DNA of 64,000 bases, taken from Betaproteobacteria bacterium. GTDB lineage: Bacteria > Pseudomonadota > Gammaproteobacteria > Burkholderiales > JACQAP01. Below the pieces are notes generated by a model that saw only the letters and a list, made by a program, of their open reading frames with translations, was not told where the DNA came from and made no database searches. The stretch is taken from NCBI GenBank assembly GCA_016194905.1, contig JACQAP010000021.1:140942-204941 (forward strand), read 5' to 3'. A program made the position numbers and the translations under genes. Shown here in pieces: positions 18,019 through 57,001 of the stretch. Numbering within the stretch: position 1 is the stretch's first letter; every line of letters begins with the position of its first letter.

Positions 18019-18061
18019 AAAGTGCTGCCGCGCATTTAAAAAGTGCTGCTGCGCACTTAAA
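18019..18061. repeat. tandem 21-22 bp repeat, each unit containing a palindrome
   Basis: AAGTGCTGCCGCGCATTTAAA / AAGTGCTGCTGCGCACTTAAAG. The second unit has a perfect AAGTGC-N6-GCACTT. Confidence 0.4.
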
Positions 18062-18500: not shown

Positions 18501-18618
18501 ATTGCCTTCGCGCAGTTTTATTCGCTGGGCGGATAAGACGGCGCGAAGCAGCGTTTTTCCTCGCTCATACGAAAACTTCGCGACAGAACCTGCGGGAGAA
18601 CTCGCCGTAATTGAGTGT

Positions 18619-31642: not shown

Positions 31643-31747
31643 GGCGCGGGGTGGATTGGTTCACGGGGGGTGTTCGTGCTCGCCGTGTTCGGTTTCTGGA
31701 TCTCGCACACGGGTTTCCGCTGACCGGATTCAACCACCTGCCTATGC

Positions 31748-31783
31748 AAATGAAAACGCCGGCGTCTGCCGGCGTTTTCATTT
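31748..31783. terminator. bidirectional hairpin terminator between paiB-like gene and flgN
   Basis: Perfect 16-bp stem AAATGAAAACGCCGGC / GCCGGCGTTTTCATTT, loop GTCT, with A/T runs on both sides. Confidence 0.7.
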
Positions 31784-31798
31784 GAACGGGAAGGGGGA

Positions 31799-36353: not shown

Positions 36354-36463
36354 GAGGGACGAGGGACTGGAGAACAGGGACTAGGGGCTAGGGACTAGAG
36401 GGACCTACACCCTTCACTTATTCATTCCTTCACTGTTCACCGTTCACTCTTCACTGATTTCAC
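36354..36463. repeat. intergenic double heptamer array (GGGAC-type units, then TTCAC-type units)
   Basis: GAGGGAC GAGGGAC TGGAGAAC AGGGAC TAGGGGC TAGGGAC TAGAGGGAC, then CTTCACT TATTCAT TCCTTCAC TGTTCAC CGTTCAC TCTTCAC TGATTTCAC. The array ends at the flgF ATG. Confidence 0.8.
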
Positions 36464-37204
36464 ATGGATCGACTCATCTACACGGCAATGACCGGCGCCA
36501 AGCACCTGCTCGATCAGCAGGCGGTGGTGGCGCACAACCTGGCCAATGCCAACACCACGGGGTTCCGCGCCGAGTTGAGCGCGTTTCGTGTCGTCCCCGT
36601 GATTGGAGACGGGTTGAACACGCGTGCCTTCGTAGTGGACTCGACAGTTGGTGCGGATCTGGCGCCGGGCGTGCTACAGCAGACTGGTCGCCCGCTCGAC
36701 ATCGCGGTTCAGGGTGGGGGATTCATTGCGGTGCAGACCGCGGATGGCGGCGAGGCCTATACGCGAGCCGGTGATCTCCAGGTCAGCGTAAATGGACAAC
36801 TGCAGACCCGCAATGGCAATGCGGTGCTCGGGGATGGGGGGCCGATCGCGATCCCGCCTGACTCGACGCTGACGATCGCATCCGATGGCACGATCTCCAT
36901 GGTGCCGACGATCGGCGTACCCAATGCGGTGGCCACCGTCGGCCGGATCAAACTGGTCAATCCCTCCGAAAGCGAAATCGTGCGTGGCGGCGACGGCTTG
37001 TTCCGCATGAAGAGCGGGAACCCCGCCGAACCCGATGCCAGCGTTGCGCTGGCGCCCGGCGTCCTGGAAGGAAGCAACGTCAACGTGGTCGAGGCCATGG
37101 TCAGCCTGATCGAGAACGCCCGCCAGTTCGACATGCAGATGAAGATGCTGCAGAACGCGGAGAGCAATGCCTCGCAGGCCATGACGGTTCTGACGGCAAG
37201 ATGA
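36464..37204 (+). CDS. flgF: flagellar proximal rod protein FlgF
   Basis: [36 protein letters not shown]. 246 aa. Confidence 0.9.
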
Positions 37205-38081: not shown

Positions 38082-38085
38082 AGGC

Positions 38086-38157
38086 GGGACTCAGGACTCG
38101 GGACTCAGGACTGAGTGATTTGTGCCGTGGTCGGCTTTTACTGAGTCCTCAGTCCTT
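38086..38157. repeat. intergenic inverted heptamer-array element (GGACTCA/GGACTCG units)
   Basis: GGGACTCAGGACTCGGGACTCAGGACTGAGT ... 24 nt ... CTGAGTCCTCAGTCCTT. The arms are complementary. Confidence 0.75.
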
Positions 38158-44116: not shown

Positions 44117-44893
44117 TCACTTCTGAAGTATTTCCAGTGCCGCAGATGCGCCGGAGGTCAGCAGTTTCTCCATCGGCACCGTCAGGTAGGGCAGCACCAG
44201 CGCCAGCATGAAAAATCCCAGCAGCAACGTGATCGGAAACCCGACTGCGAAAATATTGAGTTGAGGTGCGGTGCGCGTCAGCACGCCTAATGCGAGGTTG
44301 GTAATGAGCAGCGCCGCGACGACCGGCAATGCCAGTGTCAGCCCGGCTGCGAACATTTGACCGCCCCAGGACACCAGACTGAACGCAGCATGTGCGCCGA
44401 ACAGATCGGTGCCGATCGGCAGCATGGCAAAACTTTGTGCGAGCGTGGAGATCATCAGCAGGTGCCCATTCAGCGCCAGGAAGAACAGCACCGCCAGCAG
44501 GCTCATGAGCTCTGCAATTACGGGCGCGTTGTTTCCGTGCTGCGGATCGAAGAATGTCGCGAATCCCAGGCCCATCTGCAATCCGATCAGTTCGCCCGCC
44601 GTATCGACTGCCGCGAACGCGATACGCATCGCCAGACCCATCGCCGTGCCAATGACGATCTGCTGGATCAACACCAGCAGGCCTTCGTATGAGGATGGCG
44701 ATACGTCGGGAATGGGGCCGGCGAGCGGCGCGATCACGAGCGTCAGAGCCAATCCGAGACCGAGCCGAATGCGCCGCGGTACACCGCGATTGCCAAACAC
44801 CGGCGCCGTCGAGACCAGCGCGAGGATCCGCGCCATCGGGAATGCGAAGGAGGCGAGAAAGGCGGCTAGTTGGGTGGAAGTGAGGGAGAGCAT
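44117..44893 (-). CDS. fliR: flagellar export gate protein FliR
   Basis: 258-aa polytopic membrane protein of FliR type (FLASFAFPMARILALVSTAPVFG). Confidence 0.9.
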   Translation of the reverse strand: MLSLTSTQLAAFLASFAFPMARILALVSTAPVFGNRGVPRRIRLGLGLALTLVIAPLAGPIPDVSPSSYEGLLVLIQQIVIGTAMGLAMRIAFAAVDTAGELIGLQMGLGFATFFDPQHGNNAPVIAELMSLLAVLFFLALNGHLLMISTLAQSFAMLPIGTDLFGAHAAFSLVSWGGQMFAAGLTLALPVVAALLITNLALGVLTRTAPQLNIFAVGFPITLLLGFFMLALVLPYLTVPMEKLLTSGASAALEILQK

Positions 44894-44896
44894 GAT

Positions 44897-45024
44897 GGGA
44901 TAGGGGCTAGGGATCAGGGGCTAGGGGCTGGAAGAAAAGCGCTGACAAATTATGTTAAGGCAGTAAAGGCCTGAAGACGTGTTCCCCTAGCACCTAGTCC
45001 CTCACCCCTAGCCCCTAGCCCCTG
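44897..45024. repeat. intergenic inverted heptamer-array element (GGGGCTA units) inside the fliQ-fliR junction
   Basis: Left arm TAGGGGC TAGGGAT CAGGGGC TAGGGGC. 53-nt core. Right arm CCCCTAG CACCTAG TCCCTCA CCCCTAG CCCCTAG CCCCTG. Confidence 0.85.
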
Positions 45025-45028
45025 TCTT

Positions 45029-45298
45029 TCAGCCAATCATGAACGGCAGGTTCTCCAGCAGCCGCCGCATGTAGTCCACCATCATCGTGATCATCCACGG
45101 GCCGGCAAGGACCAGCATGACAAGGATCGCGATGAGCTTGGGAATGAACGACAAGGTCATTTCATTGATCTGTGTGGCCGCCTGAAACACGCTGACCAGA
45201 AGGCCGACGGCGAGCGCGGAAAGGAGCAGCGGCGCCGATACCAGCAGCGTCAATTCGAGCGCGTGGCGGCCGATGGTCATTACGGATTCCGGTGTCAC
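45029..45298 (-). CDS. fliQ: flagellar export gate protein FliQ
   Basis: 89 aa with two TM helices. [25 protein letters not shown] is FliQ type. Confidence 0.92.
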
Positions 45299-46041
45299 GG
45301 CGAGAAGCTCCTGACCAGGGAGCCGATCAGCAGATTCCAGCCGTCCGCCAGCACGAATAGCATGATCTTGAAGGGCAGCGAAATCATGACCGGAGAGAGC
45401 ATCATCATGCCCATCGACATCAGCACGCTCGAGACCACCATGTCGATGATCAGGAAGGGGATGAAAATCAGGAAGCCGATCTGGAAGGCCGTCTTCAGCT
45501 CCGAGGTCACGAAGGCCGGGATCAGTGCTTTCATCGGCACCTGATCGGGCGTAGCGGCTTCGCTATCGGCCAGCTTCATGAACAAGCCGAGGTCGGCCTC
45601 GCGGGTCTGCTTCAGCATGAACTGCCGCAGCGGCACGCCAGCACGATCCATGGCCTGCGTCGCGTTGATCTTGTTCTGCGAGAACGGCTGGTAGGCGTCC
45701 CTGTAGATCGAGTCGAGCGTCGGTGCCATCACGAAGAAATTCAGGAACAGCGCCAGACCGACCAGTACCTGGTTGGGTGGCGCGGTCGGCGTGCCGATGG
45801 CCTGGCGCAGCAACGACAGCACGATGATGATGCGGGTGAAGCCAGTCATCATCAGCAATAGCGCCGGCAGGAAAGTCAGCGCGGTCAGGAACAACAACGA
45901 CTGGATCGGCAGGGAGTAGGTCTGGCTTCCGCCGGGTCCCGGCGCGCTGGTGAACGCCGGCAGGCCGGCCTGTTGCGCGAGCCCCGGCAGCGCCGGCACA
46001 AGCAGCATCAAGGCGACAAGCCAGCGCACACTCTTAGCCAT
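45295..46041 (-). CDS. fliP: flagellar export gate protein FliP
   Basis: Signal peptide. FliP motifs ([56 protein letters not shown]). Confidence 0.93.
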
Positions 46042-48693: not shown

Positions 48694-48823
48694 GAGGGGC
48701 AGGGGCTAGGGGTGAGGGACTAGGGGCTAGGGAAGTGCGAAAGGAATCTCGAGCAACGCCGGAGAAGATTGACAGAAGACAAATCCGAATCGAAATTCTT
48801 GCCCTAGCCCCTAGCCCCTAGCC
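48694..48823. repeat. intergenic inverted heptamer-array element (GGGGCTA units) between fliK and fliL
   Basis: Left arm GAGGGGC AGGGGC TAGGGGT GAGGGAC TAGGGGC TAGGGAA. 67-nt core. Right arm CCCTAG CCCCTAG CCCCTAG CC. Confidence 0.85.
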
Positions 48824-50010: not shown

Positions 50011-50478
50011 TCAGGAGGGTGTCTGGCGGCGTTGATGGCTGGCCGCGCTGCGTTCGTCCTGGTCGCGCTGTTCGCTCCTGGATTCGCGCTGCGCTTCGTC
50101 GCGCTGGTGACGTTCGTAGAGCACGTCGAAAGACTTCAGCTTGATGCGCGCCAGTTGCCATTCGTGCAGACCCGCCTGGCACTGGATACTGCATTTCGCC
50201 AGCATTTCCTTCTGCTGCGCGATGGCCTGGTCGAGCTTGCTTAAGAATTCGTGATAGTTGCGCCATTGTTCGTTACCGATGCCCGACTGGCTGGACCGCT
50301 CGAATCGAGACTGGTAGTCCTGTCGGCAGGTCTCCAGCATCTGCAGGGTTTCCGCGGCGGCGCGCTCCTTGGCGCGCAGTTCCGCAAGCGCGGCGGCGGC
50401 GGTATCCGCCTGCTTGCGCGTGAGATCCATCACGACTTCGAGTGGAAAACGCTTGGACATGTCGGCTCCTTTTTTCAT
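50011..50478 (-). CDS. fliJ: flagellar export chaperone/stalk protein FliJ
   Basis: Coiled-coil 155 aa ([12 protein letters not shown]...[10 protein letters not shown]). Start coupled to the fliI stop. Confidence 0.75.
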
Positions 50479-51920: not shown

Positions 51921-52555
51921 GCCTCGCCTTTATCCTCGCCATTTCCCAGCCAGCCGCCTTCGCGGCCGAGCGTGCCGACAATGCGGCGCCAGCGCGCGTC
52001 CAGCGTCGCATCGACCTCACCGTGCGAAGTGCACACCACGCAACCGCCGCGTGTGATTGCGGCATCCTCGACGATGGTCCAGCCGGAAACTACTGTGAGT
52101 GACTCTCCCGCGAGTTCGCGCGCGAGCGCGACGTCCTGGGGATGCAGGCGCAGGCACCGCTCTTCACCGAGAACCGGCAAGCTGCGTATTGCTTCCTGGA
52201 TGACGGGCAGTATCAGTTCCGGTCTGACTTCGAGTGCGCCTCGCAGCATCTGGCGCGCGACGTCGAGGGCGACATCGAGCACTTGTTGCGCGAGCCGCTG
52301 ATCGAGTTCGGCGGTCTCCGAAGAAAAAGCCCTGGCCAGGGCGGCGAGGCGCTCTGCTTCCGAGCCGGCCCGTTGCCTGCCTTCGTTCAACCCGGTCTGA
52401 TAGCCATCGAGACGCGCTTGCTGATGGATCTTCTCGACCTGCGCCGCGGTCGTCAGCGCTACCGGACCACGCTTGCCCGGGACATCGAAGCTGTTAAGTT
52501 CCCAGCGTTCGTAAGCGGAGAGCTGCTCTTTCGGAATGAGGTTCGGTGCGGCCAT
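51917..52555 (-). CDS. fliH: flagellar export regulator FliH
   Basis: Position between fliG and fliI. FliH-like repeats and C-terminus ([20 protein letters not shown]). Stop coupled to the fliI start. Confidence 0.8.
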
Positions 52556-52557
52556 GA

Positions 52558-52686
52558 AGTCAGTGACTGGTGACTAGTTGTTGATGACTGGAAAAGGCAG
52601 AGCGTCGCGATCTGTTGATAGTCGTATTGCTGTGTGAATTCAGGTCGTCATTTCTTGGTTTTGCCAGTCACCTGTCACCGGTTACC
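52558..52686. repeat. intergenic inverted heptamer-array element (GTGACTG units) between fliG and fliH
   Basis: Left arm AGTCAGTGACTGGTGACTAGTTGTTGATGACTGG. 71-nt core. Right arm GCCAGTCACCTGTCACCGGTTACC. Confidence 0.75.
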
Positions 52687-55496: not shown

Positions 55497-55745
55497 ATGG
55501 ACCACAACAATCACCAGATGCCGGCGACAAGCGTGGAAGCAGGCTCGCCGACGGACGACGAATTGGCCAGGGCAGTCAGGGTCCTGGCGGGCAAGCTCGA
55601 TCTCAGGTCGCTGGAGCGCCTGGTTATCCTGCAAACGCTGGCTACCGTAAACGGCTCGCGCCGCGCCGCGGTGGCGCGCCTCGGGATCAGCGAACGCACG
55701 CTACGCAACAAGCTCCAGCAATACCGGCTGGATACCGTGATTTGA
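55497..55745 (+). CDS. small stand-alone Fis/NtrC-C-terminal-type HTH protein
   Basis: Only a C-terminal HTH_8-like segment is recognisable: LERLVILQTLATVNGSRRAAVARLGISERTLRNKLQQY. ATG 55497, with GTG 55467 as an alternative start. Confidence 0.55.
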   Translation: MDHNNHQMPATSVEAGSPTDDELARAVRVLAGKLDLRSLERLVILQTLATVNGSRRAAVARLGISERTLRNKLQQYRLDTVI

Positions 55746-55773
55746 GGCGCCGGCGCGCCCGAGGAGCTGCACA

Positions 55774-56097
55774 ATGGACCGCATATCAGTGGAAAGCGTA
55801 TTGAGCCAGATCCGCGCGATGCAGGAAATCGCCGCCGGAGGCCAGAAATCCCCCGTGACCGGGGCGCCCGGCAAGGTGGACTTCGCGCAAATGCTGCGAA
55901 CGTCGCTGGATCAGGTCAGCGGCGCCGAACAGCAGGCAAACAATCTGTCGCAGGCTTTCGAGAAAGGGGATCCGAGCGTGAACCTGCAGGACGTCATGAT
56001 CTCGATGCAGAAGGCCAATATCTCCTTTCAGACTGTGGTCCAGGTGCGCAATCGTGTGGTGGCGGCCTATCAGGACATGATGAACATGCAGATGTAG
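55774..56097 (+). CDS. fliE: flagellar hook-basal body protein FliE
   Basis: 107 aa. C-terminal MISMQKANISFQTVVQVRNRVVAAYQDMMNMQM is typical FliE. Confidence 0.88.
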   Translation: MDRISVESVLSQIRAMQEIAAGGQKSPVTGAPGKVDFAQMLRTSLDQVSGAEQQANNLSQAFEKGDPSVNLQDVMISMQKANISFQTVVQVRNRVVAAYQDMMNMQM

Positions 56098-56098
56098 T

Positions 56099-56216
56099 AC
56101 TAGGGGCTAGGGATGAGGGACTAGGGGGGTAGGGAACTACGTCTTCATACCTTAACTGCCTTGCTCGCTTGTCAGAGCTTTTTTTCTAGCCCCTAGCCCC
56201 TAGCCCCTCTTCCCTG
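56099..56216. repeat. intergenic inverted heptamer-array element (GGGGCTA units) between fliE and ycgR
   Basis: Left arm TAGGGGC TAGGGAT GAGGGAC TAGGGGGG TAGGGAA. The core is the reverse complement of the 44931-44983 core. Right arm CTAGCCC CTAGCCC CTAGCCCCT. Confidence 0.85.
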
Positions 56217-56221
56217 ATCTT

Positions 56222-57001
56222 CTATTTCTTCATCCTGAAATTGCGTGAGCGCTCCAGAAACATGATGTAGCGTTGCACCAGGTTTTCGTTCGAGGGTGCC
56301 AGATTCAAAAACTGGCAGCCGCAGCGGCGAAAGCTCAGTCCGTTTTTCAGCGGCGTGTCGAACGAGTTGCGCACTTCCAGCGAGACCACCAGCGTACCGA
56401 CTTCCGGCAGCCCGATGCGGCAGTTCTTGAATACATCACCGATCTGGAAGCCGGTTGCGTCATGATTGTCCATCAGCGCAACCCCGCCGATACTGATGTC
56501 CAGCACGATGGTTTCAGCCTGCACGCCGGCACCGCGGTCCGGCAGCGGCAACGTGCAGATCAGTGGTTTCGTGATCGGCGTGGCAATACGGTAGTGCTCG
56601 CGGCGCTGGATGCGTACCAGAGTACCGGGCAGCGGAATGCGCAGCGCGGGGCGGCCCTGGTAACGCACTTCGCGAATGTCGCTGGTCGTGAATTTCACCT
56701 TGACCTGGTCGTGCGAGGTCACCAGCAACACTTTCTTTGCAGCGAGCAGCCGTTTGTTTGCTGCTGCGTCAGGGGAGACGTCGAGCACGACTTCCGCCGT
56801 GTCAGACATCACGGCCAGCAACGATGTCAGCGCGAAATCGGCACCGCCATCCAGATAAGCAGTGACCAGTTGCGTGTTCTGCATGATCTTCTTCAGCACG
56901 AAAACGATCTCGGCCGGCTGACTCACGGCGAAGCGGGCATCGTCGTCAAGCTGATTATCCCGGCCCTGCGGCTGGGCGCGGTTTGCGTCCTCTTGTTTCA
57001 T
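56222..57001 (-). CDS. ycgR: c-di-GMP-binding flagellar brake protein YcgR (PilZN + PilZ)
   Basis: PilZ motifs RREHYR and DISIGGVAL. YcgR-type N-terminal domain. ATG 57001 preferred, because the listed 57070 start would overlap the upstream gene. Confidence 0.8.
   Translation of the reverse strand: MKQEDANRAQPQGRDNQLDDDARFAVSQPAEIVFVLKKIMQNTQLVTAYLDGGADFALTSLLAVMSDTAEVVLDVSPDAAANKRLLAAKKVLLVTSHDQVKVKFTTSDIREVRYQGRPALRIPLPGTLVRIQRREHYRIATPITKPLICTLPLPDRGAGVQAETIVLDISIGGVALMDNHDATGFQIGDVFKNCRIGLPEVGTLVVSLEVRNSFDTPLKNGLSFRRCGCQFLNLAPSNENLVQRYIMFLERSRNFRMKK

Follow-up and report, generated by a model that had tools for sequence, protein, structure and literature searches.

Heptamer repeats and hairpin elements between bacterial genes

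Tandem arrays of G-rich 7-nt units, including convergent inverted pairs, have been described in Xanthomonas (GGGAATC) and Nostoc (GGGGAYT) (Rehm et al. 2015, PLoS One, PMC4692102). In xanthomonads, 89-93% of these repeats are intergenic, at a mean distance of 28 nt from the upstream open reading frame (ORF), and ~180 loci and 70-75 convergent inverted pairs are found per Xanthomonas genome (PMC4692102). The repeats are mostly transcribed and form G-quadruplexes (G4) in vitro; long arrays do not occur at the same genes in related species, and flgF is among the repeat-associated genes (PMC4692102). The present analysis deals with two elements of this type, A and B, which occupy the fliR/fliQ and fliE/ycgR gaps of a 64-kb betaproteobacterial motility region with 61% G+C (hereafter the window). 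Both are probably paralogous copies of one hairpin repeat of ~125 nt that is lineage-specific, intergenic and dispersed, where the reading as a dispersed family is based on the 64 kb plus the relatives of the host. The A/B element is in this sense an ordinary kind of 'junk-like' bacterial intergenic repeat.

The STRR heptamers of cyanobacteria represent the same phenomenon as the G-rich heptamer repeats. Bacterial MITEs (miniature inverted-repeat transposable elements), e.g., Correia/NEMIS, ERIC and the cyanobacterial Nezha, are small, non-coding and intergenic, have inverted-repeat ends and are often co-transcribed. The repetitive extragenic palindromic (REP) and BIME elements in enterobacterial operons serve as barriers to 3'-5' exonucleases and allow differential expression within operons, the role usually proposed for them being that of attenuators or of stabilisers of mRNA 3' ends, and REP sequences near stop codons reportedly interfere with translation termination. 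REPINs are REP doublets that form hairpins and have ends that are more conserved than the spacer (Bertels and Rainey 2011, PMC3116915). Intergenic direct repeats of the heptamer TAACTGA, with a proposed post-transcriptional role, are known from Beggiatoaceae, Cyanobacteria and Bacteroidetes (MacGregor 2015, PMC4679880).

The window contains four further elements, C to F, and A to D closely resemble the Rehm repeats: they consist of tandem 7-nt units with a G3-4 tract, usually 3-6 of them, the unit is species-specific and the arrays contain G4 motifs. They are intergenic, start a few to tens of nt past the upstream ORF, lie mostly between co-directional genes and are often paired with a complementary array to give a potential stem-loop (the inverted pairs A, B and C), and the arrays are not kept at the same genes across related species. 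Unlike the Rehm repeats, they have a betaproteobacterial host and a GGGGCTA unit; A and B have both spacer and arms in common, so that a whole inverted pair appears to have been copied, while PMC4692102 treats the arrays as simple-sequence repeats and contains no such report. Also different are E, F and a CGTGAAT type of the relatives, which have the same architecture but no G3 tract. The elements can be placed among the heptamer inverted repeats as a betaproteobacterial member with GGGGCTA units that behaves as a copied unit, and they show all features of the class that were tested. Uncultured Betaproteobacteria thus share the G-rich heptamer inverted repeats known from Xanthomonas and cyanobacteria, and the copying of a whole arm-spacer-arm unit would join the 'simple-sequence repeat' view of such arrays to the REPIN/MITE view. 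The TAACTGA repeats are likewise abundant intergenic tandem heptamers beside coding sequences; unlike A and B, they are direct, almost never form inverted pairs, have one fixed unit and are mostly placed just upstream of start codons.

Architecture of elements A and B

The elements, their parts and the codons that bound them are as follows; gene names are the Pfam labels of called genes on contigs identical to the window.

44894-45028, family polarity plus: element A, the whole 135-nt fliR/fliQ gap
44891-44893 and 45029-45031: complement of the fliR start codon and fliQ stop codon, which bound A; both genes on the minus strand
44897-44931, plus: G-rich arm of A
44932-44981, plus: core of A, 50 nt
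44982-45024, plus: C-rich arm of A, with the variant unit TCCCTCA common to B and C read on the minus strand
56098-56221, family polarity minus: element B, the whole 124-nt gap between fliE (plus) and ycgR (minus)
56095-56097 and 56222-56224: fliE stop codon TAG (plus) and ycgR stop codon (minus), which bound B
56100-56136, plus: G-rich arm of B, CTAGGGG CTAGGGA TGAGGGA CTAGGGGGG TAGGGAA
56137-56185, minus: core of B, 49 nt, homologous to the core of A once reverse-complemented
56186-56216, plus: C-rich arm of B, (CTAGCCC)3 followed by CTCTTCCCTG

The ycgR-type gene beside B encodes PilZN/PilZ domains and lies on the minus strand. Both elements follow one plan, with a G-rich heptamer array (GGGGCTA, GGGATCA, GGGACTA and similar units), a core of ~50 nt and a complementary C-rich array. 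Both cores lie between (CTAGGGG)n and (CCCCTAG)n arms, which bears out the initial annotation of this DNA, where the same G-rich and C-rich heptamers had been noted on either side of both cores. A 13-mer pattern for the arms matches 17 times in the window, compared with 0.47 expected matches. Since the arms are mutual reverse complements, the G-rich arm comes first and the C-rich arm second on either strand, and the direction of an element is given by its core and small arm asymmetries alone. On the chromosome, A and B have the opposite orientations that were initially proposed; relative to the gene transcribed into them, they have the same orientation, because fliQ is on the minus and fliE on the plus strand. 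Across A, B and C, the window is 100% identical to Logan contigs of two sequencing runs (SRR12113409 and SRR12113410), so that the sequence of these elements is no assembly artefact.

Full-length homology of A and B

The core sequences quoted in the initial annotation are correct, and the reverse complement of the B core does share blocks with the A core. In a local alignment, the reverse complement of 56138-56186 and the segment 44931-44983 score 41, compared with 12.9 +/- 2.2 (maximum 25) for shuffled sequences, and none of 5000 shuffles reaches 41; in the forward orientation the score is 9. By blastn, the cores are 76% identical over 50 nt. Three blocks of 9-14 nt are fully identical between A and B. 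A 24-nt degenerate block, AAGGCAGTNAAGGNNTGAAGACGT, occurs exactly twice in the 64 kb with <=3 mismatches, with 0.00 occurrences expected.

The homology, initially reported for the cores, extends over the whole ~125-nt elements. In a full-length alignment of A (plus) with B (minus), 101 of 117 columns are identical (86%) and the global score is 100, versus 19 for A (plus) with B (plus). The asymmetric 3' arm, TTCCC..CCTAGTCCCTCAYCCCTAGCCCCTAG, is part of the alignment and has one and the same variant unit at the corresponding position of both elements, which shows that the arms have a polarity of their own that agrees with that of the core. In the 5' arm, the difference between A and B amounts to one 7-nt unit, matched by a 3' end that is one unit shorter in B; these paired differences keep the stem pairing intact. 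The arms are, by subtraction, ~94% identical, compared with 76% for the core. A recombination event between the arms that inverted just the core was considered and rejected, since the arms are asymmetric and their polarity follows that of the core.

As the homology is full-length and orientation-specific, the data support one discrete arms-plus-core unit present in two copies, A and B, and not independent slippage products. In the alternative case, slippage would have built each of them independently in place from a simple stem, and the likeness of the cores would be a coincidence or reflect composition. This would agree with the single-unit stem found at the B site of one relative (L110, see below) and with a unit number that varies everywhere. 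The core score far beyond the shuffles, the 24-nt block present twice against an expectation of 0.00, the strongly orientation-specific alignment with its asymmetric arm variant and the unrelated cores of C, E and F leave this origin next to no probability, and at the level of sequence comparison it is effectively refuted.

Six hairpin elements in the flagellar cluster

The genes of the window include motAB, flhBAF, fliA, flgB-L, fliE-R and fliC/D/S/T. Period-7 arrays are confined to 36-56 kb, where they occupy six gene junctions (D, E, A, C, F and B), and no period-7 signal is present in the remaining intergenic gaps of the window. The four elements other than A and B are:

36354-36455, plus: element D, flgE/flgF; a G-rich heptamer array, then a (CCTTCAC/GTTCACN)n array; weak hairpin
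38085-38155, plus: element E, flgG/flgH; hairpin with (GGGACTC/AGGACTC) arms (GGACTCA units), no G3 tracts
48694-48823, minus: element C, fliK/fliL; starts 19 nt after the fliK stop codon
52563-52687, minus: element F, fliG/fliH; hairpin with (GTGACTN)n arms; orthologous in relatives

A, B, C and D carry 3-6 units of GGGGCTA/GGGACTA/GGGATCA/GGGGTGA, whereas E and F contain no G3 tracts. Element C belongs to the A/B arm family, including the asymmetric TCCCTCA arm, yet has an unrelated 69-nt core; the cores of E and F are likewise unrelated to that of A and B. The hairpin of D is weak because its second array is not complementary to its G-rich array. The elements, at least six in number, lie within or between flagellar operons. 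All six begin 2-19 nt past the upstream stop codon (fliE, fliQ, fliK, flgE, flgG and fliG), and A, D and F end 3-13 nt ahead of the next start codon, as these gaps are wholly filled. The arrays put stop codons into all three frames of both strands in A to D and F; in E, five of six frames contain them.

At the starts of fliR, flgF and fliH (44891-44896, 36456-36466 and 52553-52562), no recognisable Shine-Dalgarno sequence follows the 3' arm of the hairpin, and either the hairpin or the upstream ribosome may be needed for their translation.

The same junctions in related genomes

Closer relatives were reached as metagenomic contigs via FliQ, FliE and FlgF (L-numbers denote the fetched loci); exact window proteins occur only in the Logan assemblies of SRR12113409 and SRR12113410. 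Among GTDB representatives, the best FliM matches (88% and 85%) lie on short contigs of metagenome-assembled genomes (MAGs) named 'uncultured Bordetella sp.' and 'Betaproteobacteria bacterium'; the other matches, at <=73%, come mostly from MAGs of Gallionellaceae and other Nitrosomonadales, with a few from Burkholderia/Caballeronia. No GGG-type arrays are present in 80 FliM-anchored loci from GTDB representative genomes, which apart from the two short contigs are <=73% identical. At the nucleotide level, L088 is 96% identical to the window in fliQ and 93% in fliP, while fliE is 95% identical in L106, 90% in L093, 85% in L108 and L101 and 84% in L110.

At fliQ/fliR, three loci with 100% identical FliQ (L088, L089 and L091) contain a 143-nt gap with a (CGTGAAT)n/(ATTCACG)n hairpin (z = -4.8) and an unrelated core. 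In the distant L114 and L115, a G-rich array (GGGGCGA GGGACGA ...) begins 2 nt from the start codon of fliR, and the contigs break off inside it. Among relatives at a greater distance, fliQ and fliR are often separated by 1-50 nt; many others have gaps of >100 nt with different hairpin repeats, some of them heptameric.

At fliE/ycgR, L106 has the arms GAGGGGA TGGGGGT GAGGGAC ... CTCACCC CTCACCC. The G-rich arm of B aligns with it in place at 23 of 30 positions (a hand count of arm columns), and the two are orthologous. The L106 core is shortened: its ends are kept (..CGTCTT.. and ..CTTTTCT..), but the central blocks CTGACAA and AAGGCAGTNAAGG are missing. L108 carries (AGGGAYG)5/(TTCCCTC)5 and L110 only a single stem, GGGGTGAGG...CCTCACCCC. 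No element of this kind is present in L101 or in L093, and in L093 the 3' end of ycgR is lost as well. The ycgR (PilZ) gene is 3'-truncated and not called in L093 (10325-10531), L094-L100 and L102-L105, with FliE 92-93% identical, and is intact in the window, L101, L106, L108 and L110.

The fliK/fliL junction is empty in L093 and L101, where element C is absent. It holds a near-perfect ~45-bp hairpin of GGGGTGA/GGAGTCA units in L106 (z = -10.7), and (GGGGCTA)5 on one side and (CCCCTCG)5 on the other side of a short palindromic core in L110. Element F at fliG/fliH is orthologous in L093 and L106, as judged for L106 from sequence comparison, and its core is 80% identical in L093-L098 (BLAST); in L108, a (GAGGCGC)-type hairpin replaces it. 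A D-type element is found in L113 (8742-8841; FlgF 92% identical) at flgF/flgG instead of flgE/flgF. It is 75% identical to D over 71 nt, scores 46 versus 1 by orientation and shares the CTACACCCTTCAC junction between the G-rich array and the TTCAC array.

Across these relatives, the architecture is conserved, and not the core sequence. At the junctions, a hairpin of short tandem units right after the stop codon persists, while unit sequence, unit number and core change fast. Turnover of the hairpins at fixed junctions is unusually fast and structure-preserving, given that the adjacent coding sequence is 84-96% identical at the nucleotide level, and the locus offers a tidy natural case in which to distinguish selection for such hairpins from mere tolerance.

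Two processes are visible in these comparisons. Slippage and homogenisation within arms are indicated by differences in unit number, by the single-unit stem of L110 and by the L110 element with different units in each arm. In setting the elements apart from local slippage, the initial annotation therefore went too far, as the arms also change by gain, loss and homogenisation of units (the 7-nt indel that separates A from B; the L110 arms and single stem). Transfer of whole units between junctions is indicated by the shared arms and core of A and B, by the asymmetric arm shared with C and by D-type elements at different junctions in two genomes.

A hairpin family with CGTGAAT/ATTCACG arms (unit 7-9 nt) is present in relatives at fliQ/fliR, flgE/flgF and flgG/flgH (L088: 2873-3015; L114: 9877-10000 and 11568-11677), so that multiple arm 'flavours' coexist in the clade and swap between junctions. 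Further heptamer arrays occur in distant loci: GTTAGNC/CGACTAA in the fliQ/fliR gap of L034 and L041, more than a dozen ACGACTT units outside the fliQ-fliR gap at L025 (11301-11398), and GCTGAGT and CTTCTGT arrays in the flagellar clusters of L057 (17453-17491) and L019 (11749-11816). Within the order of these distant Gallionellaceae and Nitrosomonadales MAGs, tandem heptamers are widespread beside flagellar genes; array counts by period over the distant loci have thresholds that are not comparable between periods and carry no claim of enrichment.

The contig of one locus, L086 (1-30), extends into GGGGCTA repeats by 8 nt more than the window does, and independent metagenome assemblies end within heptamer arms (L086 and the ends of L114 and L115). 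Such breaks suggest that the arm k-mers are multi-copy or that unit number varies within the population. The elements explain the fragmentation of assemblies inside flagellar operons of these organisms.

Predicted folds and the role of the core

The predicted folds of A reach -68.5 and -66.6 kcal/mol on the two strands (z = -4.8 and -4.7), those of C z = -3.8 and -4.0. For B, the minus strand folds with -51.9 kcal/mol (z = -3.4) and the plus strand with z = -1.1; weaker folds are also predicted for E (z = -2.5) and D (z = -1.8). Overall, the significant hairpin folds in the window and its relatives range from z = -3.1 to -10.7, with E, D and B (plus) being weaker. The predicted core folds of A and B disagree. 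All six (G3+N1-7)3G3+ motifs of the 64-kb window fall in A, B, C and D (a motif check only), and the canonical G4 motifs of B are located at 56103-56129, in the G-rich arm, and at 56190-56214 on the minus strand. As E and F lack G3 tracts, the shared property of the elements is the tandem-unit inverted-arm architecture and not the G4 potential.

Rfam 15 gives 0 matches in the whole window at gathering thresholds; in E-value mode, the only models reported are those of eukaryotic miRNA precursors, which score far below threshold and reflect a generic long hairpin. A sigma-70 promoter scan of A and B found none, and a scan of 55700-56500 and 44600-45300 found no intrinsic terminator. The T7 run of B sits in a loop and not directly after a GC-rich stem. 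The purine-rich sequence with which the core starts (CTGGAAGAAAAGCGC) was considered as a sigma-54 or sigma-28 promoter and rejected by eye, as the GG/GC spacing is unsuitable.

The initial annotation had suggested that the conserved core might encode a small RNA or a protein-binding site. In this case, selection would keep the core as a functional module (a small RNA, a regulator-bound RNA motif or a protein site on DNA), with the arms as a scaffold. The three identical blocks, the shared orientation of A and B relative to the upstream flagellar gene and the presence of both copies within one regulon are in line with such a module. On the other hand, the orthologous element of L106, the closest relative by fliE, has no central blocks, and a relative with identical FliQ contains an unrelated fliQ/fliR core. 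The core is also less conserved than the arms, folds differently in A and B and shows no Rfam family, sigma-70 promoter or intrinsic terminator. A functional core is consequently very improbable, and in annotation it should not be called a small RNA.

Further copies and the route of copying

With blastn at word size 7, the core was found in ~1.9 Mb of fetched loci only in same-species contigs, which adds no copy in other relatives to the two initially noted. The core pattern AAGGCAGTNAAGGNNTGAAGACG has 0 matches in 185,579 GTDB species-representative genomes, a set that does not include the organism itself, and 4 chance matches in JGI metagenome contigs, which are without arms and lie in unrelated coding or start-site contexts. 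A plasmid search yielded only a spurious archaeal match.

Several points weigh against the reading of A and B as members of a dispersed hairpin repeat. Just two copies with the A/B core were found in the window, the loci of relatives and the genome, metagenome and plasmid searches. There is no target-site duplication at the flanks of A, B and C: the flanks of A (..GCAT|GAT.. and ..CTAG|CCCCTGTC) contain no direct repeat, and none emerges either when the occupied C site is compared with its empty counterparts in L093 and L101. No transposase, Y1 domain or RAYT is present in 20 Pfam-scanned ORFs and the called genes of the contigs, and the copying mechanism is an inferred one. In addition, B folds poorly on the fliE-sense strand, no canonical terminator is present, and roles in stoichiometry, coupling or as exonuclease barrier are analogies only.

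A true non-autonomous transposon of the MITE or REPIN type, moved in trans by a transposase or RAYT from elsewhere in the genome, would make A and B two separate insertions. The size of the hairpin unit (~125 nt), inverted-repeat ends that are better conserved than the spacer, clean presence or absence at fliL/fliK, the D-type element at different junctions in related genomes and copies in either chromosomal orientation all agree with this, and the architecture is analogous to that of REPINs (PMC3116915). The likeness to REPINs includes the inverted conserved ends, a less conserved spacer of ~50-110 nt, the potential for a long hairpin in single-stranded DNA or mRNA, the extragenic position in either orientation and genome-specific sequence families. 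The ends are, unlike those of REPINs, tandem heptamers of variable length and not a fixed ~20-nt REP palindrome; they contain no internal palindrome beyond CTAG, and the scanned window ORFs and called contig genes, a small part of a genome, include no RAYT. MITEs are matched in size, in the non-coding, intergenic nature and in presence/absence differences between relatives (C, B and A sites). The arms are inverted repeats, yet of variable length and unit sequence, and the two arms of an L110 element carry different units; no fixed terminal inverted repeat, visible target-site duplication or related insertion sequence was seen, and the arms vary by slippage. The different arms of L110 (GGGGCTA vs. 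CCCCTCG) fit slippage and conversion better than recognition by an enzyme, and the sites of A and B already held G-rich heptamer hairpins in relatives. Together with the missing target-site duplications at A, B and C and the absence of a transposase or Y1 domain from the scanned ORFs and called genes, this makes a transposon unlikely, although it retains an appreciable minor chance. The initial proposal of a discrete, dispersed element is sustained by the full-length, orientation-specific homology and the turnover at junctions, but not as a strict MITE.

For a repeat that is copied between junctions, the unit would be transferred non-reciprocally from one hairpin-occupied junction to another. 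The most likely route would be gene conversion or replacement templated by the similar heptamer arms, which would need no target duplication. Conversion is favoured because both sites hold G-rich heptamer hairpins in relatives, no target-site duplication is present and no transposase was seen; as the arms are inverted repeats of each other, it could place the unit in either orientation. Alternatively, an enzyme could mobilise the unit in trans, as proposed for REPINs and RAYTs. After copying, the arms would keep changing by slippage, and changes in both arms would keep the stem paired.

Possible functions of the hairpins

By analogy with known elements, any function most likely depends on the shape rather than on the core sequence; the precedents are REP/BIME elements, REP sequences near stop codons and the transcribed heptamer repeats of Xanthomonas. 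The repeat would be transcribed as part of a polycistronic mRNA and fold into a long GC-rich hairpin, 2-19 nt past the stop codon, or into a G-quadruplex. As in REP/BIME elements, the hairpin could be a barrier to 3'-5' exonucleases or an attenuator that uncouples the expression of the flanking genes. In the predicted fold of A, the stem brings the fliQ stop codon and the fliR start codon within ~10 unpaired nt, which may be why ~125-nt insertions are tolerated between genes that normally overlap or abut; fliQ and fliR do so in many relatives.

A more far-reaching proposal, which seems improbable at present, is that hairpins in the flagellar and perhaps other operons are maintained after specific stop codons in this clade while their sequence is repeatedly overwritten, with genome-specific units, exchange between junctions and co-evolving arms, and that they tune stoichiometry. 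This would imply a dedicated mechanism of copying or homogenisation, or strong selection on shape. The hairpins would then adjust the ratio of subunits (e.g., FliQ4:FliR1, or hook versus rod) by partial protection or attenuation of the mRNA, together with the juxtaposition of stop and start codons across the stem.

Other repeats in the window

Two further repeats are unrelated to the heptamer elements. A 21-nt unit is present twice at 18019-18061 (AAAGTGCTGCCGCGCACTTAA), ~440 nt before the sensor-kinase ORF at 18502, and an inverted repeat with 30-nt arms and a 4-nt loop (31734-31797) lies 3' of the gene for an FMN-binding protein and is terminator-like. Tandem Repeats Finder additionally reports three copies of a degenerate 20-nt repeat at 50039-50100, apparently within fliJ (ORF 50011-50478, minus strand).

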